Shown here: in pieces, positions 7,482 through 64,000 of the stretch | Layout of the letters: the number at the start of each line of letters is the position of its first letter | How positions within the stretch are numbered: the stretch's first letter is position 1 | IMG/VR virus record: IMGVR_UViG_3300020192_000008 | Span: 32,001 to 96,000 of that record | Origin: a virus | DNA length: 64,000 bases | Reading direction: 5' to 3' (one strand) | The notes under the pieces: generated by a model | The model's database searches: none | Told to the model about the DNA's origin: nothing | Seen by the model: only the letters and a program-made list of their open reading frames with translations | Translations under genes and position numbers: made by a program

Positions 7482-8603
7482 TCAGTAGGTCGTGATCTGC
7501 GGGAACCGCAGGCCCTGCTCGACCTTGTTGTTCACGGCGCCGATCGCATCCTCGGAGACCGGGATGAAGTTCTGCAGCAGCGAGTTGCTGTCCGTCACGG
7601 GGTTCGCATCGCCCGAGTACAGCTCGAGCTTGCGGACGGCCGCGATGTTGATCACGCCCATGCCGATGTCTTCCCAGGCCTGGAACGTGATGACGTTCGC
7701 GATCTTGTCGATGTAGAACTTCGTGTTGTTCAACACGTAGAACTTCCCGAAGAACTCAGGCTTGGTGAAGCAGTAGATGTTGCCCGGACGGAGGATGTCC
7801 GTCTTGATCGTGCGGATGTACGCACGGCCGAGCAGCGTGTTGTACTTGTAGCCATCGACCGTGGTCTCCGACTGCAGACGATCGCCGAAGTCCTCGACCG
7901 TCCACTGCAGGAGATCGTCCCAGTCGGTCTCCGTCATCAGCAGACGCTCAGCCCGCAGGCGGTTGCCGTCGAGCATCTTGAACAGGTTCACGATGTCGGG
8001 GCGCTGCACGGGGCGAACCACCGCGTTGTTGGCACCAGCCGTACGCGCGAGCTCACCCTTGCGGATCGAGAACTCGGCAACGGTGCCAGCGTTCGTGCTG
8101 GTGTAGTTGAGGGCAGTGGGGGTACCACCGTTGGCCTCGGTCTGAAGCGCTTGGCAAGCCGCCTCGATGTGGATCGTGAACTCGCGGTCCTCGATCTCCT
8201 GGATGTCCTTCACCGAGTTCTCCTCGATGATCTTCGTGATCGGCATCTCGTAGGCGAGCAGCTCCTGCTCGGTCTTCTGGAAGACCTCCGAGGCGATCGT
8301 GAAGAAGGCAATCTCTGCCTTCGGACCACGGATGAACCGTGCCGTGGGCTGGCCACGGAAGCTGATGCTCATGGCACGCGAGCGGGGCTCGACGTCCACG
8401 ATCTTCACCAGGGTGTCATGGTTGACGGACCGCTGACAGTCCGTGCGGGTGACCTGCTCCGGCGGCAGAACCTTGCGGGCGTAGCTGACTTCGCGCAGAC
8501 GGTCACGGATGTACGAACCGCCGTACTCCGCCACCTTCTCGCGACCTTCAGCCGACCCGAGCTTCGCCGTGAAGAGCTCATTCAGAACTCGTGCGGGGAC
8601 CAT
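7482..8603 (-). CDS. Major capsid protein (HK97-fold, probable)
   Basis: 373 aa with strong AAGGAG RBS and highly biased codons, followed by a terminator. Gene order is protease, scaffold, decoration, MCP. EKVAE near the N-terminus is a possible cleavage site. Confidence 0.8.
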   Translation of the reverse strand: MVPARVLNELFTAKLGSAEGREKVAEYGGSYIRDRLREVSYARKVLPPEQVTRTDCQRSVNHDTLVKIVDVEPRSRAMSISFRGQPTARFIRGPKAEIAFFTIASEVFQKTEQELLAYEMPITKIIEENSVKDIQEIEDREFTIHIEAACQALQTEANGGTPTALNYTSTNAGTVAEFSIRKGELARTAGANNAVVRPVQRPDIVNLFKMLDGNRLRAERLLMTETDWDDLLQWTVEDFGDRLQSETTVDGYKYNTLLGRAYIRTIKTDILRPGNIYCFTKPEFFGKFYVLNNTKFYIDKIANVITFQAWEDIGMGVINIAAVRKLELYSGDANPVTDSNSLLQNFIPVSEDAIGAVNNKVEQGLRFPQITTY

Positions 8604-9232: not shown

Positions 9233-9604
9233 TAAGCCGATGGTTCCGTGAAGGAACCGAATGAAGTCGGACGCCCCTTCGGGCGCCTGCGTGTCGTTGT
9301 TACCGCCGACCAGATGGCCGATCTTCTCGCCCATGTTCGGGCCCACGAGATCAACCGCCGCAGCGATCTTCTCGAGCTTGCCCTCCTCGGCCGCCTTCTC
9401 CATCTGGGCGACTAGGCTCTCGTAGGGGACATCCGACTGGATGCCCTTCTCGTGCATCGCCGAAGCGACCTTCTCGGCCTCTTCGTGACGCATGCGGGCC
9501 TGGGCTTCCTTCTTCCAGAAGTCCCTTTCCCCGGCGAGTTGGGTGATCGCGGAAGCGCTCTTGGTGAGGAGGTCCTGGACCTGCGCGCTGCTCAGCTTGT
9601 TCAT
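9233..9604 (-). CDS. Small helical scaffold-like protein; ends at TTA (9233-9235)
   Basis: ATG 9604 with GGGGAG RBS; EKVAS, EKAAE and EKIAA motifs. In-frame TTA follows ...FLHGTIG. Reading it as Leu runs through the next gene's RBS and start. Confidence 0.65.
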
Positions 9605-12093: not shown

Positions 12094-13743
12094 TTACAGA
12101 AGGCCCCCGTAGATGTCAGCGCCCAACTCGTCCCAGAAAGCGTCCCGCAGATAGTGGACCGTGAGGGGAGTGAAGAGCTGATCAACTGGTGCCGACGCCA
12201 GCTTACTGAACTCACTACCCCTTGGGGCAGATGCGTTCAGAAGTCCTTGTGCGCCGCTCACCAGATCCATGAGAGTTGTTCGGTACCCGTTGTAGGCAGC
12301 TCCTATCTTACGCAGCACTTCTGAGGGATGGGAAGAAGAGGCCCTCTTCTCACCCCCGTCGCTCTTCTTCATCACAAGTACACGATGCTCAATCGCAGGC
12401 GCGAGAGCAGAGCGTGATTCCATGAGAGGGAGAAGAAGTCTTGCAAGTGAAGGAAGGAAGGAAGCGTGGCCGAGAGACATACTCTCAGTATCTTTCGATC
12501 TGGGGAAGACGATGTTCCGACGATCAAAGTCGTCAGCCATGTCTCTCCGTCCGATCTGAATCAAGACGATACGCTGAAACTCCCTGGGACGAAGAACGAT
12601 GCCCAAACCACCAGAAGTAGACAGGGAGCTGGGCAGGTCATGTTTCCCGAGTGCATCAAGCACATCATCAGGCAAATCTTCTTCTTCTCTCGACAGAGTG
12701 GCCACCGCCTTGCCAGCGAACTGGCTCGGCACAATGTCCTTGATGATCTCACTCTTCTTGAGCTTCGCGTCCTTGTATTGGAACGCTTCCTTGAAGATTG
12801 ACTCGTTGAGAGAAGCCGTCTTTTCCCCAACGGTCATCTCGTCGTAGCCGAGCTTCTCCGCCTCATAGGCAGAAGAGCCGAACGAATAGACGCGCCCCTC
12901 AGACGCGATCTTCATCATCGTCTTGGCTGTCTTGTCAGCCCCGATGAAGACGAAAGAGATGTCGAAGAACTTCGGGAAGTCGTTGTAGACGTACACCTTC
13001 CGGCCATCGGCCAGAATCTTGTTCATCTGATTGCGAGCGTGCTCGCAATAGTCCTTCCGAGTGATCGACACGCCCCGGATAGGGGTCTTCTTATGGATGG
13101 CGAGGATGGCCTGGCCCGGAGACGCGTGCTTCTTCGGGTCGAAGGTGGCAGCCGCCTCGTGGTACCGCTTCCAATCGAGGCAGATGGAGCACGTATCGAA
13201 GGGCACCTTGCAGCCCATCGAGACATCCGGAAACATGCCCTGGCTGAGCTTGTCCCAGACCTGCGTGCCCCCGTACTCCTGGCACTTGAGCTTATCGACC
13301 CGAGTAACGAGCTCGACGCGCTTGAGCCTCGGGTGCCAGACAGCCAGCTCCACCTCACCGAAGGCGCGGCCTGCGTCCTTGTTGCGATGGTGGGCGTAGG
13401 GGTGGGCTGAATAGAAGGTCGGGTAGCCGTACGCCCAATCCTTCGCCTTGATCTTGTCGAGCAAAGGGTTGCCCGTCCAATCATCAGGGCGATGGATCAG
13501 GGCAGCTTCTGGGAAGTGATCGCCGTTGACATTGGAGCCGAAGAACTCTCCGGCCCCCATGGCATTGACGAGGTTGTACGCTGCATCATTCCGGGGCCTG
13601 AGCGACTCGATATACTTGACGACGTCAGGAAGAAGTGTGGCTGATGCGGTCTTCTCGAAGTACGCATCAGACGCTTTGTTGAAGAGCGGGATGACCGTTG
13701 GGCCAGTCTCGCTCTCACCCCAGTATGTGCAGAGCTTGTACAT
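12094..13743 (-). CDS. Prohead maturation protease
   Basis: 549 aa with NGDHF, HH.NKD..RAFG, DVSMGC.V...CSIC and FFDISFVFIGAD motifs, matching the His/Ser HK97-type prohead protease layout. KxA sites flank the domain. Ends at TAA. Confidence 0.75.
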   Translation of the reverse strand: MYKLCTYWGESETGPTVIPLFNKASDAYFEKTASATLLPDVVKYIESLRPRNDAAYNLVNAMGAGEFFGSNVNGDHFPEAALIHRPDDWTGNPLLDKIKAKDWAYGYPTFYSAHPYAHHRNKDAGRAFGEVELAVWHPRLKRVELVTRVDKLKCQEYGGTQVWDKLSQGMFPDVSMGCKVPFDTCSICLDWKRYHEAAATFDPKKHASPGQAILAIHKKTPIRGVSITRKDYCEHARNQMNKILADGRKVYVYNDFPKFFDISFVFIGADKTAKTMMKIASEGRVYSFGSSAYEAEKLGYDEMTVGEKTASLNESIFKEAFQYKDAKLKKSEIIKDIVPSQFAGKAVATLSREEEDLPDDVLDALGKHDLPSSLSTSGGLGIVLRPREFQRIVLIQIGRRDMADDFDRRNIVFPRSKDTESMSLGHASFLPSLARLLLPLMESRSALAPAIEHRVLVMKKSDGGEKRASSSHPSEVLRKIGAAYNGYRTTLMDLVSGAQGLLNASAPRGSEFSKLASAPVDQLFTPLTVHYLRDAFWDELGADIYGGLL

Positions 13744-14282
13744 AAGGGGCCCTGACCGCCCTTGTTGTTGCGGCGCTGGTAGGGCTTGGCGACGACCTTG
13801 GGCTTGAGCGACTCGGCGAACGAGTTACCTGCGTGCTCACCACCCCTACGCCACGAATCAGCCATGGGGGACTTGAACTTGTCGGAGGCCGACAGGCTCT
13901 CGGTGAGGATGCCACCGGCTGACATGGGGTTGTCGGCCATGCGGCGCAGATAGGTCCCGGCGACGATCGGGTCCTTGGCGAAGTTCGGATTCATGTTCCG
14001 AAGCGACGAGTACATCTGGTTGAACATCTTCGGGTCGCGCTCGTGATGCTCATGCAGGTCCGGGTTCAGTTCCAAGATCTGCTTGAAGTCGTGCGACTTG
14101 GTGGCCGCATCGTAGATCTTGCCAGCGGCCATGCCGGCGCCGGCGAAGGCAACTCCGGCAGCAGCCATCCCAAGACCCTGCGTCATCGCATGGCCGAAGC
14201 CCTTGGCAGCTTCACCACCGAAGGCGACCTTCTCCTGGGGCTCGCCGTACTGGGCGTAGAAGTCATCGAGGGGGTTAGACAT
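13743..14282 (-). CDS. Virion protein (179 aa); ends at TTA overlapping the protease ATG
   Basis: EKVAF plus a hydrophobic segment. In-frame TTA at 13743-13745 forms TTATG with the next start. Confidence 0.65.
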
Positions 14283-15514: not shown

Positions 15515-16210
15515 ATGGATAAAAAACTCATGGGAAGCTGGCCCCGGCTGGTCTCCGTGCTGGAAGCAGCCGAGATGCTTTCGGTTTCTGTCGATCAAGT
15601 CCATCGCTGGAACCGGGATGGTCTACTAGAGGCTGAGTACCCAGAGGGAAGAAGAGGGGGGAAGTACTTCCAGACGGAAGACATCCAGACCCTCATAGAA
15701 GCTCGGGCCAGCAAGACGCTCTCTGACCATGATGTGAAGATTCTAGCCCTTCAGTCTCTGGTCTCCTCCAAGAGGGCAGAACGAAAACTCGATGAGCTGC
15801 TTGGGATGCTCGGTGTTTCGGACGTGAAGCTCGGTACCTCGAGGGAGGAGGTCTTGGCTTTCTTCGTCGAGGTAGAGGACGAGATCAAGGAGGGTGAGCC
15901 GCTCCTACCCGAGGAGGCGATCGGCTGGGCCAAGCGGATGCTGGGCATCACCGAGGAGTACCTGGAGCTAGTGAAGGAGCACACGTTCATGCTCGAGCCC
16001 TGGGTCCCGTACATGCAGCTCTCCAAGAAGCTGCACGACAAGTTCCCAGCAGGGCAGGCAGGGGCCTACCTCTCTCACGCCATCCGTAATCTTCGGCACA
16101 CGGCGTACTTCTACGTGCGTCGGGCGGATGGGGTGAGAGAGGCGACGAAGCGCTTTCCCGAGGGTGGCGTGACGAGCCAGCTCCTCGGGATCATGTTTCC
16201 GAAGAGCTAA
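15515..16210 (+). CDS. MerR/excisionase-type HTH DNA-binding protein
   Basis: LVSVLEAAEMLSVSVDQVHRWNRDGLL...F..EDI is a typical MerR/HTH_17 signature. Lone plus-strand gene in the virion module; the start may be ATG 15530. Confidence 0.7.
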   Translation: MDKKLMGSWPRLVSVLEAAEMLSVSVDQVHRWNRDGLLEAEYPEGRRGGKYFQTEDIQTLIEARASKTLSDHDVKILALQSLVSSKRAERKLDELLGMLGVSDVKLGTSREEVLAFFVEVEDEIKEGEPLLPEEAIGWAKRMLGITEEYLELVKEHTFMLEPWVPYMQLSKKLHDKFPAGQAGAYLSHAIRNLRHTAYFYVRRADGVREATKRFPEGGVTSQLLGIMFPKS

Positions 16211-19108
16211 CCCTTGGTTCGTTGGCCCCGAGTAACCGCCGAGGTTGGGGCCACCGCTCCGAGCGTTCTCTTTCTTCGGGGTGATGATGTCCGGCCTGGG
16301 GTGGATGATCATCGAGCCAACGAAGCAGTAGATGATAGAGTGCAACGCATCATCAGGCCGATCGGGCCTGTGCTGGTACTGGATCATGTGAAGAGACTGG
16401 TTGTACTCTGTGAAGATGTTCAGGATGTCTTGCCCGAACGGCTCACGGAACTCTTCCCACCTGGGGAACATGATCTGCTTGCGCTTGATGGCCGTGAAGA
16501 CATCGCTCACGACTTCCGTCTTGTGCACCTTCCAACGCTGCAGCTTACCGTCCCACTCGACCTTCTTCTTGTTACGGGCCATGTACTGGAAGCGGTGCAC
16601 GCGCTGGGTGCCGAAGCGACGGATCAAGTAGGCGTTGTTGTTGAAGCCACCGCCGTAGTCGCACCCGATGATGCGGACGTTGTACGCATGCAGGATGCGC
16701 TTGATCTTCTCGAGCTGGATCTCAGGGTCCGTGTCTTCACCCGTGAAGCGGTGGATGAAGAAGATCTTGAACTTCATCCCGTCGTAGTAGCCGAGACTCA
16801 TGACCGTGTAGCTGTTCTCGCCCGTGTTACCTTGGTACGCGATGCTTCCGTTACGCTCTGTGACGATGTACCCCGAAGGCACGGCGCAGCAGTACACCTT
16901 GCCCGCATAGGGGACGTGCTTCACCGCCGTGGAGGGGGTGTTGAACTGGTAGTCTCGGCCCTCCGACCACAAGGCTCTCCAGCGCGTCTTCCGGTTCCCC
17001 TCCGCAGGCTTGTGCAGCTTCACGGAGCACCGAAGACCGAGCTTTATGCAGATCTCCTGGAAGTCCTCGCACAGCCCTTTTGACGTCGAATAGAAGGCCC
17101 CTCCTGTGCAGCCCTCCCGAGGGTCCGTGTAACCGTCTCCGTCTACCAGGGCCTGAAACAAGATCCGAAGCTGCCTTTGGCCGAGGCCGAGGAACTCCCG
17201 TGGGATACGCTTCTCGTCCCCTTCGACCCCTACGTTCTGGGCGTACCACGCCCAGTACTGCTTGCCGTAAATGGTCCAGTTGACGTCCCCAGTCTTTGGG
17301 TTCGGGAACGCCTTGAACGAGACCCCCACCCGGTCGAGAGACGCCTGCATCTTGAGGTAGGTCTCGTGGTTGACCGTCTCCCTCTGCGACATCTTGAGGC
17401 AGGACGGGCGGCCCCCATCAAAGCAGACCCCGCCCTCTGTCACGAGATAGCCGAGTAGCTCCAACCAGTCGTCCATGGGGACGGTCTTGTCCTCAGAGCC
17501 CTTGTACCCAGGGCTCGTCGGCAGCCCCGGCAGCGTGAAGGCCTGCTTCTCCTCTCCTTGCCAGTCGACGTAGCCCACGAACTTGACGTTGCCGCCCCGT
17601 TCTACGAGTTCGCCCGCCGACTCGGTGAGCCACCGCTCTCCCTGGGAAGTCCCGACACGCATGCGGTGCGTATGGGTGATCATCAGATCGAGCCCCCCCT
17701 TGGTCTCGAAGTGTAGAAGTGGCTGGTCCCAGTCGCGTACCGTACGAACCTTCGGAGCCACGAAGGTCATCGCACGCGTTTCTGGATCCCACTGGGCTAC
17801 CTTGTCTTCGTCGGTGAGATCACAGAAGTACTTGAAGCCAGACTGCGTAAGAATGCGTGTCTTGTCATCGTGACAGCCCCAGTCGATGCCAGCGAAGATG
17901 TTGCCGGCGGTAGCCGTCTTGCGGATCTTCTCGAGGGCCGTGGGGTGCATCGTCAGCTTGGGGTCGCATGACTCCTTCAGCTGGCCCATGGTGATGGGCC
18001 GGAGGCCTGAGTCGTAAGACATCCCCAAGACTTCGTTGTAGAACTTGTCGCGGGGGTACCGCTCGTAGTCGAGCAGGATTTCCTCCCACGACCGCCAAGG
18101 CACCATCAGCTGGGGGATGCGGTAGCTCTCGAAGACCCCGTCACGGACCTGGTTGATCCACTTCGAGTCCTTGTGCATGGGGTCGATCTTCCCCCCGCAC
18201 TTCTCGCAGATGAGGCTCTTCTTACCGATGTTCTTCTCGCAGAGGATGTTCCAGTGCCGGCCAGCACCGCCACCAACGGAGGACCCGCAGTGGTCGCACG
18301 GCACCATCCACTCACCCTGCGTCGACATCGGGCGGCCCTTGGCCACGCCTGACCGGTAGAACTCGATGGGGTTGTCGAGCCCTTTGGGTGTGCCGGCGTA
18401 GATGAAGCGCTTGAACTTCTCCGGAGCGTGGCTTGTGCACTGCTCGATGACGGGGATGTTGTCGGCGAGAATGTCTTGGAGCTCGTCGAGGGTGAGCAGC
18501 CAGGCTGGGATGCCTCGGGTACGGTCGGCGTTGAGGAACGCATACCTCAAGGTGATCTTCGCCCGGTTGACGAACTGCTTCTCGAAGATGTTCTGCGACA
18601 GCATGGTCGTCGTGAACGTCTTCAAGACCTGGCTCGTCTCGATGGGCTCCTTGATACGGTCGACCGAGAAGACCTTCGTCTGCGTGGCTGACGGGCTCAC
18701 GTACAGCGTCTTGTACGCCGGCACGACGCACGAGTACGAGAGCATGATGTTGCCGATCATGGTCGACTTCTCGACCTGCCGGCCACAGAACAGGAGCACG
18801 CGCCTGGCTGGGGTGTTGTAGGGGCGGCGCATGTGCCGACGCCCCTCAAACGTGAAGTTCTCGTACCCCATACCGTCCTGCCGAGGCATCCGGAAGGCGA
18901 ACTCGGTGAACTGGCTGGGCAGGACAGCGGGGATCTTGACCGCTGCCCTGCGCTTCTCCTCTATCTCCCAGAAGTCCTCGAAGGGCTCTGGCTCAGGGAG
19001 CCAGGGCTTGCCGTTGTGCATCCTTCGGAGTTCTTCGTCTGTGAACTCTTCAGGCTCGAGGTCCTCTTCAGAAGGGACCGTGACGGGGTCAGGCTGGAAG
19101 CTGCTCAC
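16208..19108 (-). CDS. terL: Terminase large subunit (lambda GpA-like) with intein; ends at TTA
   Basis: GRQVEKST (Walker A variant), LTLDELQD (Walker B), GTP motif, CxxC...CxxC, GIDWG nuclease motif and C-terminal PDDALH. In-frame TTA at 16208-16210. Confidence 0.85.
16826..17875 (-). mobile_element. Intein with LAGLIDADG homing endonuclease in TerL (350 aa)
   Basis: Junctions GIDWG|CHDDKTRILT ... NGSIAYQGN|TGEN. Block B THTHRM; LAGLIDADG motifs LLGYLVTEGG and FQALVDGDG. Confidence 0.88.
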
Positions 19109-20443: not shown

Positions 20444-20450
20444 CTAAGGC

Positions 20451-22628
20451 TAACGCCTGCTGGAACGCCAGCGTCTTGAGACCCTCGATGACATCCTCGA
20501 GGTACTTCACGCACTTCTCGAGAGGGCCCTGGGGGATTTTCGAGAGCCCGAGCCTCGACGACATCAGCAGCTCACAGAGCTTCGCCTGCGTGCTGTTGAT
20601 CTCCGGCAGGTAGGAGACGAACGTGTGGATGTTCTCGGGGTTCACGAAGCCGATGGAGAGGATCGTGTCGACCGAGGTGGGGTCGGGGATGAAGGCCGCC
20701 TCCTTGAAGAGGTTGCGCTTGAGGTCGAAGGCGGGGCTCGAAGCGAGCTTCTCCTGGGACTTCCTGCGCGAGGCCATCTTCACCGACTCGGCAGGCTGGA
20801 TGTGCCGGCCCACCCGGACGTCGACCGGCATGCCATGGGCAATCGCCTGGGCAAGCTTCGTCTGGGCGTAGCCGAGGTCTGTACCCAGGCCACCCAACAG
20901 GAAGAGCGAGTCGTCGAACGACAGGAAGTGCTTCTCGTCAGACGCCAGCTTGTCGATGGGGAAGCCCTCGAACGAGAAGCTGTTGACGCCCCCCGCCCTC
21001 ACGGTCACCGAAGCAAGCTTCCGCTGGGCGTGCGCCACCTTGTTCCCGCCCTCAGGGGCGCTCACCAGGACAACGCTTTCGGCCTTGCCCATGCCCATCC
21101 ACTTGTAGTCCTTGGGCAGGAGGAACGTACCCTCATCAGCCTGGGTGGGCTTCTGGATGTTGGGCTGCAGAGAGACTGTGCACTCGCGACCATCGTAGGT
21201 CTCGACGTGCAGCTTCTGCTCCCCGTCCGTGACCTTCCCCTTGATGGTCATGGGGATGGTCGCCTCTGTCTCGTCACCACTCTGACGAACGAACACGCCG
21301 GTGCCCGTGGGGGAACCGAACATGAGCTCGCCGTTGGTGCTCTGCAGGCTACCGGCGATCTCCGGCTGCACAGCCGCCGCCGACCCGTTCGTGAACAGGG
21401 CGATGGGCAGAACTGTGCCGTCGAGGTCAGTCAGGTTGGGGAATACGAGCCCCATCATCTCGGTGCCCTCCTCGTTCTGCACCTTGTACGTGCCGAACTC
21501 GGTGATGGGCTTGAGGTCTGCCAGCGGGGCGCCTTCACCCACGGCATCGTCAGTGACGGTGACCGAGCCATGCTCATCGGCATCCTGGGCGAGCTTCACC
21601 CCGAAGTGCTTGATGATGTCGCCTCGGCTGACGGAGTGAGCCTCCTTGACCTGCCAGTACTTGTGGTTCGCCTCCTTGACCCGGTAGCCCACGTTCTCCT
21701 TCGAGACCTGGATGACCGAGGGGCGGATGGCGCTCTCCATCGAGGAAGCCACCTTCTCGCTGGTCACCTGGTTGGTGTTCCAGATCTTGTTGATGGAGGG
21801 GAGGGTGGCGTGGGCGTTCTTCACGTACGCCTGTTGAACCCCAACGTCCTTCATCTCGTGGGCGAAGGAAGTAAGGTCGGAGCTCAGTGCTGTCGGAAGG
21901 ATGGCCTCGAGCAGAGAGGCTGACTTCTCCACACCAGTCAGGTCATGACCCGAGGTCTTGAGGTCAGACTCGTTCGGGTCCTTCTTGAAGCCCTTGAGCT
22001 TCTTGGCATCGACACCAAGCACCTTCGACAGGCGCTCTGCGAACTGCGCCTTGTTCTTGTCTTCGGCCGTCTTGGTCTCAACGTGCAGCTGCTCACGCAG
22101 GTAGTACTCGAGATCTGAGCTGGTCTTGCCCATCATCCCGCCGGCGCCACCCATGCCGCTGCCATCCCGGTGGGGCGGGTAGATCTGACTGGCCATCGAC
22201 GTGTCACCTGGCGTCTTGCTGGTGACATCGAAGGTCTGTGGGCGGAAGAGGGCTTCCTTCAGACGCCGCTCGGTGAGGGGAAGAACCTTCGAGTCACCAG
22301 TAACGATGAGGTCGAGGGGCTGAAGCTTCTTGTCCTTGACCACCACCGGGATGCGAACCGACTTCACGCCCACGGCGTCCTTGGCCTGGTCGCTTGCGCC
22401 TTGCTGCAGCTCGGTCTTGTTGGAGATCTCAATGTGGCCGAATGCAAAGCCACGCTCACCATCGATTCGATCCATCACCGTGTGAGGCTCGAAGTCCGAG
22501 ATGAAGGGGATCTGCTTGTACGCTTCCTGCAAGATCTCCTGCGACCACTGGTTCGGGTCTTCAGGAAGAACAGTCTCAGCGGCCGTCTTCTGGATCGGCA
22601 GGATGGAGTCGAGGTAGAGGTTCGTCAT
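20451..22628 (-). CDS. Large virion protein with many KxA motifs (725 aa); ends at TTA
   Basis: Two in-frame TTA codons (20451-20453, 20445-20447) lie just before the next GTG start at 20443. The standard code gives a ~500-nt overlap. Confidence 0.7.
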
Positions 22629-31752: not shown

Positions 31753-32327
31753 GGCTTCTCCCGGGTGCACAGGACGACGAGGAAGAGACCGTCAGTGACG
31801 CTGAGCCTGAGTTCGACTCAGGCCAGCGTTGCTCTATCTGCGGCGAAGCCCTCCTCCTCACCGAGGAGGTCTTCTGTCTTGAGCTCAGGCAAGCCTGGGT
31901 TGAAGGCGGCGAGCTGCAGACCTTCCCCCTTCTTGACGCCGACGGAGAACCGGAGTTCACCTCGTACATCTTTCACTTCGAGTGCTGGGAGAGCGCTACG
32001 CATGAGCTCGGAGAACAAGTCGAGGACATCCCAGCCCTCACTTCCCTCGAGAAGCTTCTCGAATGCACGGAGTGTGGCAACAGCATCACTGCCTGGGACC
32101 CGTACTGCGCCGTCACCTTTGGAGAACTACATGCCTCCAAAAGGCGACCGTCTGGAGCGCCGGCGGTTCACTTCACGGGCCTATCGAGGCCACTTCCGCT
32201 CTGCTTGGTCTGCGTGGCCAGGCTGATCGATGAATGTTTCGACGACTGGGAAGACGGCGTCATGGAGCGTCTTCCGATGATTGAACACCTGTACCAACAG
32301 TACATCGCCGGAGAACAAGAAGAATGA
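31734..32327 (+). CDS. Double zinc-finger-like protein
   Basis: CSIC...HFEC and CTEC...CLVC tandem modules; ATGA-coupled to the MoxR gene. Confidence 0.55.
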   Translation: MGGHFLRLLPGAQDDEEETVSDAEPEFDSGQRCSICGEALLLTEEVFCLELRQAWVEGGELQTFPLLDADGEPEFTSYIFHFECWESATHELGEQVEDIPALTSLEKLLECTECGNSITAWDPYCAVTFGELHASKRRPSGAPAVHFTGLSRPLPLCLVCVARLIDECFDDWEDGVMERLPMIEHLYQQYIAGEQEE

Positions 32328-44622: not shown

Positions 44623-44942
44623 GGACGGCGAAGTTCAACGCGCTCTCCGTCAAGGAGCTTTCTGCCAACTTCATCAGCTCTGACCCAGCGCTTGAGGGCA
44701 AAGCAGCCTTCGTCAGCACGCTGACGCAGAAGACGCATGGTCAGACCATTGGCAAGGTCTGGAGCAAGGACACCCTCGACTTGCTCACCCAGCTCAAGGC
44801 CTCGATGGAAGCAGACCTCGAGACGGTTCACTTCGCTGACGGGCCGACCAGTTCTTCCATCAACCAGCAACCTCGTCAGATCGACGAGGCTTTTGAGGGT
44901 GGGGGCATAGGCGAACACATCGGTGGTGAACGTCAAGTGTTA
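44619..44942 (+). CDS. Hypothetical protein; in-frame TTA at 44940-44942 (TGA four codons later)
   Basis: GTGA-coupled start; 107 aa up to TTA. Confidence 0.6.
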
Positions 44943-45047: not shown

Positions 45048-46430
45048 ATGGCTAGCAGCGAGCACCAGCTCATTTCCCTGATCATGAAGACAGGGGATTT
45101 GAAGACAGTACTCGAGTGGGGGATCACCGAAGACGATCTCCTGATGAACGACACGAACTCGGCGTTCAAGATCTTGATGTCGGTGTACACGAGCCCCGAT
45201 TCAAGGGGCGCTGTACTTGGGCCGTCATCAGCACTTGAGAGGTACCTGCCCGCGTGGCAGTTCGAGGTTGATGCGGGCATGACGCTCAACTTCCTTTGCA
45301 GCGAGGTGCGCAAGCGCAGGCTGTCGAAGGAGCTGAAACTCAAGGCACAGGCCTGCATCGAGTACGCAGACCTCAACCCTGAGGAGGCATTCAACCAGTT
45401 GAACGAGGCAGTGACCCTCTACCGCAACATCGATGCCGGCAAGTCAACAGACGTTGACCTGGCAACGGGCATGAAGAAGGTCATCGCGAAGTACAACAAG
45501 GCCAAGAACGGGCAGAGCATCGGCCGGTTCATGTGGCCTTGGAAGCCTCTGCAAGAGGCTACTGGTGGTGTGGCTGACGATGAGTTCGCCGTCTTCTACG
45601 GCAGGCCCAAGAGCATGAAGTCTTGGATCTTGATGTACCTCATCACCTTCGCCTTCGAGATGAACCAGAAGGTTCTCTTCTACACCAAGGAGATGACCGA
45701 CGAGCAGTGCTACCAGCGGATGGCCGCCATCATGGTCGGCGCTCTCTACCAGGACCTGCGCCTGGGCAAGCTGCCTGCCTTCCAGGAAGAGCAGCTGCAC
45801 GTCATCCAGCAGGTGGCCGAGGAGATGGCCTCGAAGAACAGGATGATCTGCCTCACGGCCAAGGACGTCGCTGGCAGGGACACCCCCAGCTGGCTGCGAG
45901 GCAAGATCGAGAAGTACCACCCCGACGTTGTCTTCGTCGACGGTCTGTACCTGATGAGCCCCGAGGCTCGCCGTAAGACGATGCAAGACCACGAGCGTGT
46001 TCGGGAGATCTCCCGTGACGTTCGACGCATCGTTCTCGAAGAGAAGGTCCCGCTGATGGCCACCATGCAGGCCAACCGGCAGGCAGCGAAGCACTCTGAA
46101 GGCAACCTTGATGAGATCGCCTTCTCTGACTCGCTCTCGCAAGACTGCACCATGGCTTGCCGGGTGATGTCCGACAAGCACCAGCCCACCATCAGCCTCG
46201 TGATGGCCGGCTCTCGTGAGTGGACGCTCGACGGGTTCCGGGTGCACGGCATCCCAGCGAGCAACTTCAGCTTCCACTCGGTTCTGACCAGCAAGGAGAT
46301 CGAACAGGTCAGGAAGAACGACGAAGAGGAGGACGAGCCGAAGGACAAGAAGCCCGTACGTCAGCCCCGCACGTTGGGGGCAGAGAAGCCTGCTCCCAAC
46401 TACAAGAAGACGCTCGAGAACATGCCGTTA
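45048..46430 (+). CDS. dnaB: DnaB-like replicative helicase; ends at TTA overlapping the primase ATG
   Basis: GGAGG RBS; GRPKSMKS Walker A, FVDGLYLM Walker B, MQANR and SDSLSQD. In-frame TTA at 46428-46430. Confidence 0.82.
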
Positions 46431-47398
46431 TGGACAGGCACTCGGAGGTACTTGCTATCGCACAGAAGTACCTTCACAAGGTCAAGAAGAGCGGGCCAGA
46501 CAACGTCATGGCGTTCTGCCCCTTCCACGACAACGTGAACACCCCGGCGTTCACGATGTCGTTGACCAAGGGCATCTGGTTCTGTTTCTCATGCCACGCC
46601 AAGGGAACACTCAAGATGTTCCTCAAGGCGATGGGCATAGGCGAGGGTCTTGTTCAGACGCACTACGGCTCGCTCATCGACGCCCTACGCAAGAACGTAG
46701 ACCCGGCCTTTGATCCCAACAAGCCTGGGGTCATCTGCCAAGAGCCTCTCGACGAAGCCATCCTCGGGTTCTTTCACGAGTGCCCGATGGATCTAATCAA
46801 CGAGGGCTTCACCGAGGAAACCCTGCTCCACTTTGGGGTGGGGTTCGACAAGAAGCACAACCGCATCACGTACCCCATCCGAGACTTCACGGGGAACCTG
46901 GTCGGCATCAGCGGGCGCACTGTTACAGGTGCCTACCCGAAGTACAAGGTCTACGACCTGGAGTACAAGGACTTCGGTCTGGGCGTCTACCACACCGACA
47001 AGTCTCGGTACCTCTGGAACTCGAGCGAGGTCTACCCTCAAGTCTACTTCTCAAGGGGCGAGAAGGTCGTGCTCGTTGAGGGCTTCAAGGCCTGCATGTG
47101 GGCCTGGCAAGCGGGTATAAAGAATGTGCTAGCCCTTCTAGGCTCATCAATGTCAGCCCAACAGAAGTGGGTGCTTGAGCGTCTAGGCGCACCGGTGTAC
47201 CTCTGGCTAGACAACGACGACGCCGGCCGTAATGGCACGAAGAAGATTGGCGATGATCTGTCCAAGTCCTTGGACGTGTTTGTCATCGGCTACGAAGAAG
47301 CGCAACCGAGTGATCTCGCCCTTGAAGATGTCCAGAGTAAAGTCGCCTCCGCGACGGACTATCACCTGTGGGCAGTAAGAAAGTACCTGAAAGGTTTA
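46430..47398 (+). CDS. dnaG: DnaG-like primase
   Basis: CPFH...CFSC zinc finger, GR...KY, and TOPRIM motifs VEGF and DNDDAG. Starts at a TTATG and ends TTA TGA. Confidence 0.88.
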
Positions 47399-48555
47399 TG
47401 AACATGGGCTCCTACGGCAAGACTGATATGAAGAACGCCCCGACCACCTTCCGCCAGTCGGTGGCCAGCCAGCAGAAACAGAAGCCCGAGAAGACTGGTG
47501 CTGGCGGGGGGAACGTCCCCTACTTCGTCAACCAGTTCAAACCCTCGACGGAAGAGCCAGACGTGGTGCGCCTCCTCAAGGGGGAGTACCCGGTCCAGCT
47601 GGCTGGGCAGAACGGTGAGCTGGTCGAGCAGACGCTCGCCTACTACATCTACCGCGAGCACTTCGATGGCCGTACCAACAAGAGCGCCATCTGCTCAGCG
47701 GGACCGTTCGCGATGGACCGCAAGAAGCGCCAGCCCTGCGATGGCTGCGACATCTACTGGGAGGAGCGGTCTGCGGGCAAGAAGCAGAACAACCGCATGT
47801 CCAACCGGGAGATGTACGTCTTCTCGATGCTTCATCACGCCAACTACGTGAAGACCGAGCAGCTCGACCGCAACACCGGCGCCGTGAAGGTGAACGATGA
47901 CGGCCAGCCGTACATGAACTGGGTACGGATGATGGCCCACGAGCGTGGGAAGTTCGCTGGCAAGGAGATGAAGGACGCCAACGCCCTTCACTGGGCCATG
48001 GGCTTCAACCACTTCAACGTCATCCGCGAGTACGACAAGCAGATCGGCAAGTCGTGCAGGGCGTGTGGTGTGAAGGCTGGGCGCAAGGGCGCTCACGAGG
48101 TCGGGGTCAAGAGCGAGGCGTGGTGTTGCCAGGGCTGCGGGGAGGCGCTCATCGAGGTCGACTCAACGGAGCTGGCGCCCAAGCAGATCGACGAGATCAC
48201 GTCTGACGTGGTCGAGTGCGCTGTGTGCAAGCGTGTCGGCTACCTGCAGGAGATGGTGTCCTGCACCGAGTGCTCGGATGGAACGCGCTCGGAGATCTTC
48301 GACGTGGACCTGGAGGTTCAGCGGGTGAAGCCTGCTGATGGTGGCAACCAGACGGTGCTGGCCATTGTGGGCTGGGCGAACCCGCACCCCATCGACCCTC
48401 GGCATGTGGAGATTGCCAGGCCGCTGGAGCTGCCGAAGATCTACGCGCCTACCCCGCTCGAGCGTCAGCACGAGCTCTTCGGTAGCTCGGGGAGGCAGCC
48501 GGTCACCGCTGGCAGCAAGCCCTACGGCGGGCCTCCGACTCTCGGCGGCAAGTTA
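47398..48555 (+). CDS. Probable ssDNA-binding protein with Cys clusters; ends at TTA
   Basis: Lies between primase and polymerase, with a gp32-like H..C..C..C pattern. TTA 48553-48555 immediately precedes a terminator. Confidence 0.5.
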
Positions 48556-48559
48556 GCAA

Positions 48560-48598
48560 AAAGGGGGAGCGGGTGATGAGCCCGCTCCCCCTTTCTCT
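48560..48598 (+). terminator. Intrinsic terminator
   Basis: 14-bp stem AAAGGGGGAGCGGG/CCCGCTCCCCCTTT with a pyrimidine tail. Confidence 0.75.
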
Positions 48599-48630
48599 AT
48601 CTACCCTACCGCCTACCCGGAGCGCCCTAC

Positions 48631-55620: not shown

Positions 55621-56324
55621 ACGCTCCCGCAACCACGATGCCCAGCCCCGAGACCGCTCCCCGCACGCCCGAGGAGCTGACGAAGATGACCGTCTTCCTC
55701 CAGCGCAGGCTGGCCGAGCAGCTCAACTCGTCGGGCTTCCCGGTCTGGACGAGCGAGCCGGAGAAGACGGCCTTCATCACCGAGACCAGCGAGAAGCGCG
55801 GGATGATCTTGGCCGAGAAGCTGGCCGCCTTCGACAAGGCCCGTGGCGGTGCTCCCGCCGCTGCAGCTCCGGTGGCTACGGTGACCCCCATCACCCCGCC
55901 GACGGAGGCAACGCCGGCGCCCGCCACGGCCAGCAAGCGTCAGCCCAAGACGCAGGCGGCTGCACCTCCTCCGGCAGCTGCCCCCGCTGTCAGCGGTGAG
56001 CAGGGGGTGCTCTCGTCCGAGGTCGTCAACCTGCTCAAGACGGTCTCGACCGACCTGAAGAACCTGCACGGGATGACCGATGCGAGGATCGAAGGGGTGG
56101 AGAACCGTCTCGATGGCGGCAAACTCGTCACCAAGGGCGACCTCGTGGAGCTCAAGGACATGCTCACGGCGTCGATGCGCGTGCAGCAGGCCACGCTCGG
56201 GGTGCTCTGCCTGTTCGGGCAGGAGGTGCTCAAGGCCTCCACCCGTGACGTGATGGGTCCGGCGATCGAGGAGGCGAACAACGCCCTCGACGCTCTGGAG
56301 GAACTGGGCAAGGGAAAAGCATTA
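55617..56324 (+). CDS. Hypothetical protein (235 aa) ending at TTA; -1 frameshift product extends to TAA 56509
   Basis: AAGGA RBS and ATGA coupling. G_GGA_AAA at 56312-56318, TTA at 56322-56324 and hairpin at 56329-56353. Confidence 0.7.
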
Positions 56325-61759: not shown

Positions 61760-62113
61760 TAAGAAGGAGTTCACATCAGGGAAGCTGGGGTTGATCTTCG
61801 TGCCCGCGAATGAGTACTTCAAACCTTCTTCGATGACCCAGATGCTCAGGTCACCCAGCGCCTTGCGGATCTTGTAGAGACTCGACTTGCTCACCCCGTT
61901 GTTAGGTCCGTGATACCCCCGGGCCATCTCGAGGGTGATGGGCTGAATCTTGTACCGGTAGGTGAACTCGTAATAGGGACTGCCGCCAAGCTTCTTGATG
62001 GCCTCCCAGAGCTTCTCGTACGTCTCCTTGTCTTCGGCGCTGAGCCGGTACTTCTGCGAAGGCTTCACCTTCTTGGTGCCTTCGTAGAACCTGCGCAGTC
62101 TTCGGAGGCTCAT
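61760..62113 (-). CDS. Hypothetical basic protein; ends at TTA (61760-61762)
   Basis: ATGA-coupled start. The in-frame TTA is followed 1 nt later by ATG of a short ORF (MTKKLKPWQG...). Confidence 0.5.
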
Positions 62114-62319
62114 GGCATGGCTTTCCGAGCGTGAGGTTTGATGCGAGCTACTAGCTCAGCCCCCACTGTTGTACCGCTTTCTATCGAAGACCTGCGGGCC
62201 TCTGCAACGAGCTGTTCTACCTGCTGCAGACACCACTGGTAGGCGGGCTTTTCATACGCCCCGTCCTCGGCGATGGTCCGCTGTACGTGCCGTGCGTAAG
62301 CACGAAACTCGTGGGCCAT
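62110..62319 (-). CDS. Small hypothetical protein (MAHEFRAY...)
   Basis: 69 aa; C-terminal portion of the 243-aa track ORF. Confidence 0.5.
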   Translation of the reverse strand: MAHEFRAYARHVQRTIAEDGAYEKPAYQWCLQQVEQLVAEARRSSIESGTTVGAELVARIKPHARKAMP

Positions 62320-62866: not shown

Positions 62867-62954
62867 CTTCAACTCCTTCTCCCAGCTTCTCTAGCTCGGC
62901 TTTCGCATCATCCATCTCTCGCTGAAACCACGGCTTGCTGTTTTCATCCGCCAT
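62853..62954 (-). CDS. Small acidic peptide (33 aa) starting in a TTATG overlap
   Basis: AAGGAG RBS 5 nt upstream; MADENSKPWFQREMDDAKAELEKLGEGVEDGTT; TAA stop. Confidence 0.55.
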   Translation of the reverse strand: MADENSKPWFQREMDDAKAELEKLGEGVEDGTT

Positions 62955-64000
62955 AACGACTCCTTGATGAGTGCGAAGTTGTGTTCACCGGGGATGGTCT
63001 TGCGATGCTGGACCCACCCCTGGACATTGCCCAGGAAGTGCGTGCAACGATCGACGTCTATCCACGCCTTGTTGAGCTCATCCCACTCGTAGACGGGCTG
63101 GTAGAACATCTCGAGCTCCTTCTCCGTCATGGGCCTGCACGGGTGCTCGAGGGGGCTCATGTGCCCAGGCTTCACGAGCCTGTCGTAGAGCTCGAGGTCC
63201 TTGGAGATGTCGCGCTTGCCATCGTGGGCGAGGGCAGAGACGCGGGCGCAGCGGGCTGCGGAGACCTTCACCAGCTCAAGCCGTACCTCAGTCGTCGTGT
63301 CGCTCCAGGAGTAGTAGCTTGCGTCGCCACCGTCGACGTACGGCAGGTGCCACTCACCGTGCTTGAGCTGCTTGGGCTCGCTCTTGTCGTAGACATCCTT
63401 CATCATCCCCGCGACCATCTGCATCTCGGGTTGAGCGTTGGGGTCGCAACGCAGGGCGAAGAAGTTGTCCCACTCGGTCGCGGTACAGATCACAGTCTGC
63501 CAGCCCCACGGCTCGAGCAGGCGGTTGGCATGCTGCTTGTGTACAGCGAGGTTGAACAGGCCCTGAGCTGCACGGACGCACGCATCAAGCGCATCCGTCC
63601 AGTGCTTGGACGCTTCGTGGTTGGAGAGCTCGCTCATGACCTCGGTTGCCTGCATCCCCTTCTGGTTCTTGGTGAAGGCGATGGGTACGAAGGGGTTGGC
63701 CTTGACGCGCTCGATGTTCTTCTCGACGGGGATGGCCCTCGAGGAAGCTGAGTTACGGCTGTTGTGCACGACGACCCCATTCGCGAGGAAGTTGGGGTAC
63801 TTCCCCACGATCTCGAGGTCGTAGGTTGGCTCTTGGCCCCGCGAGACGATCTCGTCGATCCGTGCGAGAGACCCGTACAGATACGTGCCGCCCTGCCAGC
63901 CCTGCTTCTCGTGCATCGCGCAGTGGCAGTCGTCGCACAAGAGCGTGACGTTAGTCTCTTCCAGAGCCAGAGAAGGATCCTGATGCACCGGAACGACGTG
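62954..64000 (-). CDS. thyX: Flavin-dependent thymidylate synthase, C-terminal part with intein; ends at TTA
   Basis: SRNSASSRAIP, HKQ.ANRLLEP, NFF.LR....AQPE, SAARCARVS and H.SPLEH motifs; 5' end lies beyond the window. Confidence 0.82.
63761..64000 (-). mobile_element. C-terminal part of an HNH-containing intein in ThyX
   Basis: H..PV...N..LLC..CH...H HNH motif, then TYDLEI...NFLANGVVVHN|S splice junction. Confidence 0.85.

Follow-up and report, generated by a model that had tools for sequence, protein, structure and literature searches.

Where does the large terminase gene (TerL) of this phage end? The window, by which we mean the whole 64,000-nt stretch of DNA analysed here, comprises positions 32001–96000 of a 107,272-nt IMG/VR virus record (G000) from an uncultured phage; the record has a GC content of 60%, is 58% complete as judged by CheckV, and holds no tRNA gene anywhere in its 107,272 nt. 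Within the window, TerL converges on a gene for an HTH protein encoded on the opposite strand, and a first-pass annotation of this DNA had noticed that the TAA ending the HTH gene is, when read on the other strand, an in-frame TTA of the terminase. It had suggested that a TTA stop would let the two genes end on the same three bases, and that the terminase would otherwise run 243 nt antisense through its neighbour. The question is whether this TTA is read as leucine or as the end of the protein.

One triplet at the junction of TerL and the HTH gene

Reading both strands of the junction confirmed the geometry. The plus strand at 16205–16213 is AGC TAA CCC, with TAA the stop of the HTH ORF, and the frame of TerL, read along the minus strand, is CAA GGG TTA GCT (...N Q G L A...), with TTA as codon 967 (Table 1). 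Under translation table 11, the TerL ORF occupies 15968–19108 on the minus strand and meets its next stop only at the TAG at 15968–15970, which gives the antisense run its stated length (80 codons plus the stop). The argument that a simple TAA/TTA error could not rescue both genes also stood, in that a middle-base substitution never yields two canonical stops. Because TAA and TTA are reverse complements, one triplet can terminate two convergent genes, and because two stops of the standard code can share at most 2 nt, sharing of all 3 nt requires TTA to act as a terminator.

Table 1. Positions of the junction, the two genes that meet there, and the TTA codons considered as gene ends (window coordinates unless stated otherwise).
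Feature	Position	Strand	Evidence or context
HTH (HTH_17/MerR-like) gene, convergent on TerL	15515–16210	+	Pfam HTH_17 5.7e-6, MerR_1 6.6e-5
Shared triplet: HTH TAA (+) and in-frame TerL TTA (−), proposed UUA terminator	16208–16210	both	sequence and relatives' TerL stop aligned to this codon
15-bp hairpin in TerL-sense RNA, starting at the last Gly codon and containing the UUA	16174–16213	−	dG −24.8 kcal/mol, z −3.9
80-codon extension of the TerL ORF under table 11, antisense to the HTH gene	15968–16207	−	read as untranslated or unselected
TerL coding sequence, predicted to end ...GPTNQG	16211–19108	−	PF05876, phrog_675, homologs' QG end, GC3 0.845
Intein with LAGLIDADG-type homing endonuclease inside TerL	16823–17869	−	~aa 414–762, ~350 aa; weak PF14528 match at aa 648–719
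TTA GCC TTA closing the gene for the 725-aa protein; GTG of next gene (20443) immediate	20445–20453	−	relatives' stop aligned exactly to TTA codon 726
TTA at protein end, followed by RBS and ATG (9194) of next gene	9233–9235	−	aligned to the stop in G007 and G001; 0/0 vs G004; GC3 0.76 to 0.46
TTATG, A shared with the ATG of gene 12094–13743	13743–13745	−	GC3 0.73 to 0.56; table-11 tail of 81 codons
TTA three codons ahead of TGA	44940–44942	+	past alignment end: G004 stop 6, TTA 6, canonical stop 10 codons
TTATG, overlapping next ATG	46428–46430	+	past alignment end: relatives 20, TTA 26, canonical 56 codons
TTATGA, TTA abutting TGA	47396–47398	+	last Leu or stop, ambiguous
TTA before terminator-like hairpin, with table-11 TGA TGA in the loop	48553–48555	+	sequence context
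TTA followed by 51-codon table-11 tail	56322–56324	+	GC3 0.80 to 0.73, a weak drop; no homolog check
TTA C ATG junction with next gene	61760–61762	−	GC3 0.79 to 0.33
TTA at protein end	62297–62299	−	relative's stop 4, TTA 5, canonical 20 codons past alignment end; GC3 0.86 to 0.50
TTATG junction with next gene	62954–62956	−	GC3 0.84 to 0.65
Two further convergent pairs sharing TAA/TTA	7990–7992 and 21914–21916 of G000 (outside the window)		table-11 overlaps of 153 and 144 nt

The TerL protein matches PF05876 (GpA_ATPase, E=1e-11, above the cut-off) and phrog_675 (E=2e-52), and has a further match to PF17289 (E=0.004) that falls below the cut-off. As judged from sequence matches, it is a GpA-type large terminase, the criterion of an N-terminal GpA ATPase with a C-terminal RNase-H-like nuclease being met. 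Its start is uncertain, with two candidates: the GTG at 19108, and a site 29 codons downstream of it that the public gene call (1017 aa) uses. The phrog_675 match is split into two stretches, and the intein is missing from most TerL homologs (which are 600–625 aa long), with others carrying PF14528/PF14890. Some homologs contain one or two inteins and reach up to 1391 aa.

To place the C terminus, we searched with the C-terminal extein, found 208 TerL homologs, and compared the C-termini of the best 120. About 115 of these best 120 end in ...GPxxQG, and query-piece coverage of 72% corresponds to residue 966, just before the TTA. The codon following QG could be read at 74 IMG/VR loci, where it was TAG (44 loci), TGA (19) or TAA (8) at 71 of them, the non-canonical ones being the window (TTA), locus L077 (TTA), and one locus with a four-residue extension. 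A second set, made up of metagenome loci with a readable TerL end, contained 51 canonical stops and a single TTA, which lies on the same contig as L077. The alignment that the first-pass annotation had proposed, with an expected end near ...GPTNQG, thus places the homologs' end directly before the TTA. The observation that it had said would refute its reading, homologs that extend ~80 aa further, was also looked for; run-on proteins turned up only in P0004 and P0015 (Logan proteins that continue QG-L-E) and in G005, a relative discussed below, and all three have Leu after QG. For G005, this Leu is again encoded by TTA (GGG TTA CGA), opposite the TAA of its neighbour.

Could the open frame beyond the TTA nevertheless encode a genuine 80-residue tail, translated under the standard code antisense through the HTH gene after the TerL stop was lost? 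The long form is the one annotated by public gene callers, and P0004, P0015 and G005 run on too. The frame is open because the TerL and HTH frames are shadow frames, with codon position 3 of one opposite position 1 of the other, and a high-GC3 gene is expected to leave such an antisense frame open. However, more than 95% of ~200 homologs have a free ...QG end, and the codon bias of TerL is missing from the tail: GC3 in the TerL frame falls from 0.845 before the TTA to 0.605 in the tail, and the HTH frame over the same segment has a GC3 of 0.815. We found no counterpart of the tail in TerL homologs, except as the antisense of the HTH gene, and on this comparative evidence the putative tail is HTH coding sequence read backwards.

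The HTH gene adjoins TerL in ~55 related loci identified by blastp, and the C terminus of its product in the window lies within 0–2 residues of the ends of these homologs. In these relatives the same gene pair meets tail to tail without intergenic space, but the two stops share only 2 nt (CTAG, TTAG or TTAA), whereas the overlap in the window is the full 3 nt. In roughly half of the loci in which the HTH gene was found, its stop starts 1 nt before that of TerL (offset −1); an offset of 0, in which the whole triplet is shared, occurs only in the window and in L077. Of the 71 canonical TerL ends, 44 are TAG, which makes it the most frequent stop of this gene, though TGA leads across these genomes; this dominance of TAG at TerL ends appears to arise from the usual 2-nt overlap of the two stops, which forms the palindrome CTAG. 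The HTH protein also has a weak match to phrog_57, the terminase small subunit (E=7.5e-4), and may be a small terminase or a small-terminase-like DNA binder in an unusual convergent orientation.

The offset −1 arrangement bears on a second explanation, in which the window carries a 1-nt insertion, GG to GGG at 16211–16213, arising by error or recent mutation, and the true sequence is CAA GGT TAG. As the first-pass annotation had pointed out, a TAG does lie next to the TTA, in the +1 frame (GGGT TAG C). Removing one G would yield QG-TAG with the usual 2-nt overlap (TTAG/CTAA) and leave the HTH TAA intact, which is the geometry of roughly half of the loci with the HTH gene. However, the same 1017-aa TerL product is on record from both the JGI/IMG and the Logan assemblies (although probably from the same reads), and short-read errors do not typically fall in runs of only 3 bases. 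No other gene of the record appears frameshifted, G005 shares its TAA/TTA triplet in the same way without such a fix being available, and the remaining TTA sites would be left unexplained. On the assembled sequence alone, we consider this explanation very unlikely.

Folding of the junction RNA revealed a hairpin on the TerL-sense strand and a weaker one on HTH-sense RNA at the same position (dG −18.0 kcal/mol, z −2.65). The two could form a bidirectional 3′-end structure for both convergent transcripts, a possibility for which function and conservation are untested.

TTA at gene ends in the record and in its relatives

We surveyed in-frame TTA codons in 97 high-GC3 ORFs of the record (31,302 codons) and found only 20, of which 14 lay at 0.8 of the ORF length or beyond, 4 at 0.14 or before, and 2 at gene junctions; the 4 early ones probably lie upstream of the true starts. 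In the window, 10 of the 11 TTA codons (91%) lay in the final 20% of their ORF, compared with 16 to 44% for other rare codons. The two other frames of the gene bodies contained 35 and 35 TTA triplets, versus 2 in frame, and within 20,747 homology-covered codons of the record we found no TTA, bar read-through positions aligned to a stop. In-frame TTA is scarce in all of the relatives (0.06–0.7 per 1000), and its absence from gene interiors is on its own weak evidence. A general avoidance of the TTA trinucleotide was rejected because gene bodies contain TTA at normal levels in the other frames. AT-rich motifs at gene ends were likewise rejected as a cause, in that other rare A/T-ending codons are not enriched there and TTA matches the relatives' stops codon for codon.

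The context of the individual sites resembles that of gene ends. GC3 dropped after every TTA tested, and the junctions TTATG, TTACATG and TTAGGTG resemble stop-start coupling, with TTATG mirroring TAATG. The gene for the 725-aa protein closes with TTAGCCTTAGGTG, after which comes the GTG of the next gene; its product ends ...LAFQQA before the TTA, compared with ...LAFQKS and a stop in the relatives, GC3 is 0.85 before the TTA at 20451 and 0.38 after it, and the end of this gene in related loci is a canonical stop in 52 of 52. Three sites at which TTA precedes a canonical stop by 1–6 codons (47396, 48553 and 44940) are uninformative either way. At one of them (48553–48600, plus strand), a G+C-rich hairpin and then a run of T lie downstream of the TTA and look like an intrinsic terminator.

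Treating TTA as a stop changes the layout of the genome. The number of 3′ overlaps longer than 20 nt decreased from 19 to 12 (from 3038 to 1404 nt in total), with the control genome G004 nearly unchanged, and TTA would end about one gene in 6 (17 of 103, using a crude gene model). The record has three convergent overlaps, and all three were reduced to a single shared TAA/TTA triplet. With both the HTH C terminus and the TerL TTA matching the ends of their homologs, and with two further pairs arranged alike, the triplet sharing at 16208–16210, as inferred from these alignments, is more than chance.

For comparison with relatives we used six contigs, G001, G004, G005, G006, G007 and G008c137. 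G005 is IMGVR_UViG_3300031772_000014 (Ga0315288_10000170; 75,150 nt), which holds L077, L175 and L089–L092, and G008c137 is contig C137 of G008 (L102 and L190–L194; 91,785 nt), which is found in a Myxococcales MAG, shows 65% TerL identity and reads TTA as sense. Megablast against cultured-phage records gave no match, tblastn gave only relatives at 27–28% identity, and a single-sequence scan of IMG/VR did not find a close relative. Contigs from the same phage family have been binned with MAGs of Myxococcales, Burkholderiales, Deltaproteobacteria and Anaerolineales, and such binning offers weak hints to host range.

The relatives' stop aligned exactly to a TTA of the record in four genes (those for TerL and the 725-aa protein, the 9233 gene and the 44940 gene), and lay within a few codons of a TTA in four more, with the table-11 stop 10–168 codons further on. 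An automated test of ORFs running beyond the stop of their relatives was noisy, owing to upstream-gene alignments and natural length variation, and we used only its exact-codon result: TTA sat exactly at the stop in 3 ORFs of the record and 3 of G005, compared with 0 in G004, G001 and G008c137. In G004, G001, G006, G007 and G008c137, conserved stretches of the alignments instead place TTA opposite L, M, I, F or V, as exemplified by RNA polymerase, in which 16–18 of the following 20 residues are identical. Inferred from these alignments, TTA is an ordinary Leu codon in those five relatives. G005 behaves like the record, with TTA at the relatives' stops in TerL, RNA polymerase and two other genes, and its TerL and HTH genes likewise share a TAA/TTA triplet. 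On the TerL tree, G005 lies far from G000, which groups with P0002 and the P0004/P0015 pair (SH-aLRT 82), so two or more separate parts of the family carry the trait.

These comparisons also weigh against a genuine tail on TerL. Under the standard code, ~17 genes would each need to have lost a stop to TTA, in one case leaving a tail of 168 codons that crosses the following gene, and the exact coincidence of TTA with relatives' stops, seen in two unrelated lineages only, has a rough chance of ~2e-7 (based on 3 of 18 extended ORFs and a TTA frequency of 6e-4). We consider a translated tail very unlikely. A systematic TAA-to-TTA sequencing artefact was also rejected, because TTA ends and canonical TAA stops both occur on both strands, and because other contigs of the same metagenome series end canonically.

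The TAG in the +1 frame allows one more explanation, in which release occurs at ...QG by a hungry-codon slip rather than at UUA itself: at an unreadable or very slow UUA, the tRNA-Gly in the P site would slip from GGG to GGU and bring UAG into the A site. The shift of human mitochondrial ribosomes by −1 at AGA/AGG onto UAG is an analogy for such a slip to a stop. The CAA GGG TTA G of the window does place TAG in the +1 frame, such that the conserved QG end would result, 4 of the 11 listed TTA sites are TTAG, and the QG-L-E of P0004 and P0015 is compatible with TTA GAx, their DNA being unread. However, the GGG TTA CGA of the G005 terminase has no +1 stop, sites of the form TTATG, TTAC and TTACATG lack a stop in any nearby frame, G does not follow TTA more often than expected, and no upstream Shine-Dalgarno sequence at a prfB-like spacing was seen. 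Slippage fails to explain the genome-wide pattern and would be at best an added route at TTAG sites; as the explanation for the TerL end we regard it as quite unlikely.

UUA as a proposed terminator, its possible determinant and known systems

Returning to termination at UUA, we consider it likely that UUA acts as a translation terminator for this phage and its host and that TerL ends ...GPTNQG, with the caveat that release at UUA is inferred from DNA comparisons, in the absence of peptide, ribosome-profiling or read data. According to this proposal, the UUA at 16208–16210 would be the termination signal of TerL, and UUA would not be a leucine codon in G000 nor, independently, in G005. One triplet would stop both genes, read as TAA by the HTH gene (plus strand) and as TTA by TerL (minus strand). 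The suggestion that a TTA stop lets the two convergent genes end on one triplet is in this way supported, on the basis of the genome-wide comparison, but not proven. With slightly less confidence, we think it probable that UUA is a genuine fourth stop, used independently in at least one distant family member, and that TAA/TTA, as a palindromic and bidirectional stop, serves three convergent pairs, which would imply a bacterial or phage release mechanism that is as yet undescribed.

What might make UUA a stop? We searched for a phage-encoded determinant and rejected one within the available DNA. A release-factor domain (RF-1, PF00472) was not found in G000–G005 (with G000 58% complete), nor were tRNA genes found in these phage records, and no gene was common only to the two TTA-stop phages, G000 and G005, the records of both being incomplete (58% and 41%, respectively). 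Because the readable phage DNA contains no tRNA gene and no release-factor domain, we infer that the determinant may be borne by the host, as the lack of a UUA-reading tRNA and/or as a release factor of altered specificity, or may lie in the unsequenced 42% of the phage.

Changes from sense to stop have been described in organelles. UUA is a stop in Thraustochytrium mitochondria (NCBI table 23). UUR is a stop in Pycnococcus mitochondria and UCA/UCG in those of Sphaeropleales, and the mitochondrial release factors carry matching mutations (PMC6821328). As in those codes, the codon here has gone from gene interiors and appears at homologs' stops, the standard stops are kept, and the inference is comparative. 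Unlike the organelles, which have small genomes and their own tRNA sets, the system considered here is a ~185-kb dsDNA phage, presumably translated by a bacterial ribosome with RF1/RF2, and its determinant was not found. In full-text literature searches we found no UUA stop, no UUA release system and no other sense-to-stop change in bacteria or phages. Codetta makes no prediction of termination codons and so misses sense-to-stop changes (PMC9825746).

Two phage systems also offer comparisons. In phage stop-codon recoding, TAG or TGA is reported to be read as an amino acid (10.1101/2021.08.26.457843; PMC8629427). The likeness is that table-11 genes are mis-called and that the trait is restricted to certain lineages in a family. 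The difference is one of direction: a change from sense to stop gives over-long, overlapping ORFs instead of fragmented ones, and no suppressor tRNA or release-factor gene was seen in the available DNA. The closest precedent among phages for a UUA with a special role is translational bypassing. In the terminase of the Streptomyces phage phiHau3, UUA triggers a bypass of a 7–10-nt coding gap, after which homology resumes (PMC10732093). What that case has in common with ours is that the phage infects a high-GC host and that its large-terminase gene contains a UUA, otherwise very rare, which serves as a decoding signal and not as a plain Leu codon. However, homology of the TerL studied here stops at the UUA, which is the C terminus of the family, with nothing homologous after it among ~200 homologs; UUA-induced bypass was rejected at this site because homology does not resume downstream.

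Possible consequences

If UUA does terminate translation here, it would be, as far as literature searches show, the first sense-to-stop code change outside organelles, and some bacterial or phage codes would hold such a change in a form invisible to current screens. It would account for one triplet stopping genes on both strands, an arrangement disallowed by the standard code. For this phage, about one gene in 6, including the terminase and the 725-aa protein, would have been assigned a wrong C terminus and a false overlap, and the public call for TerL would be 51 residues too long. The biochemical question would then be what releases the peptide at UUA on a bacterial ribosome, and the presence of the trait in two distant family members and not in five others would provide a starting point from which to look for the hosts and the determinant.
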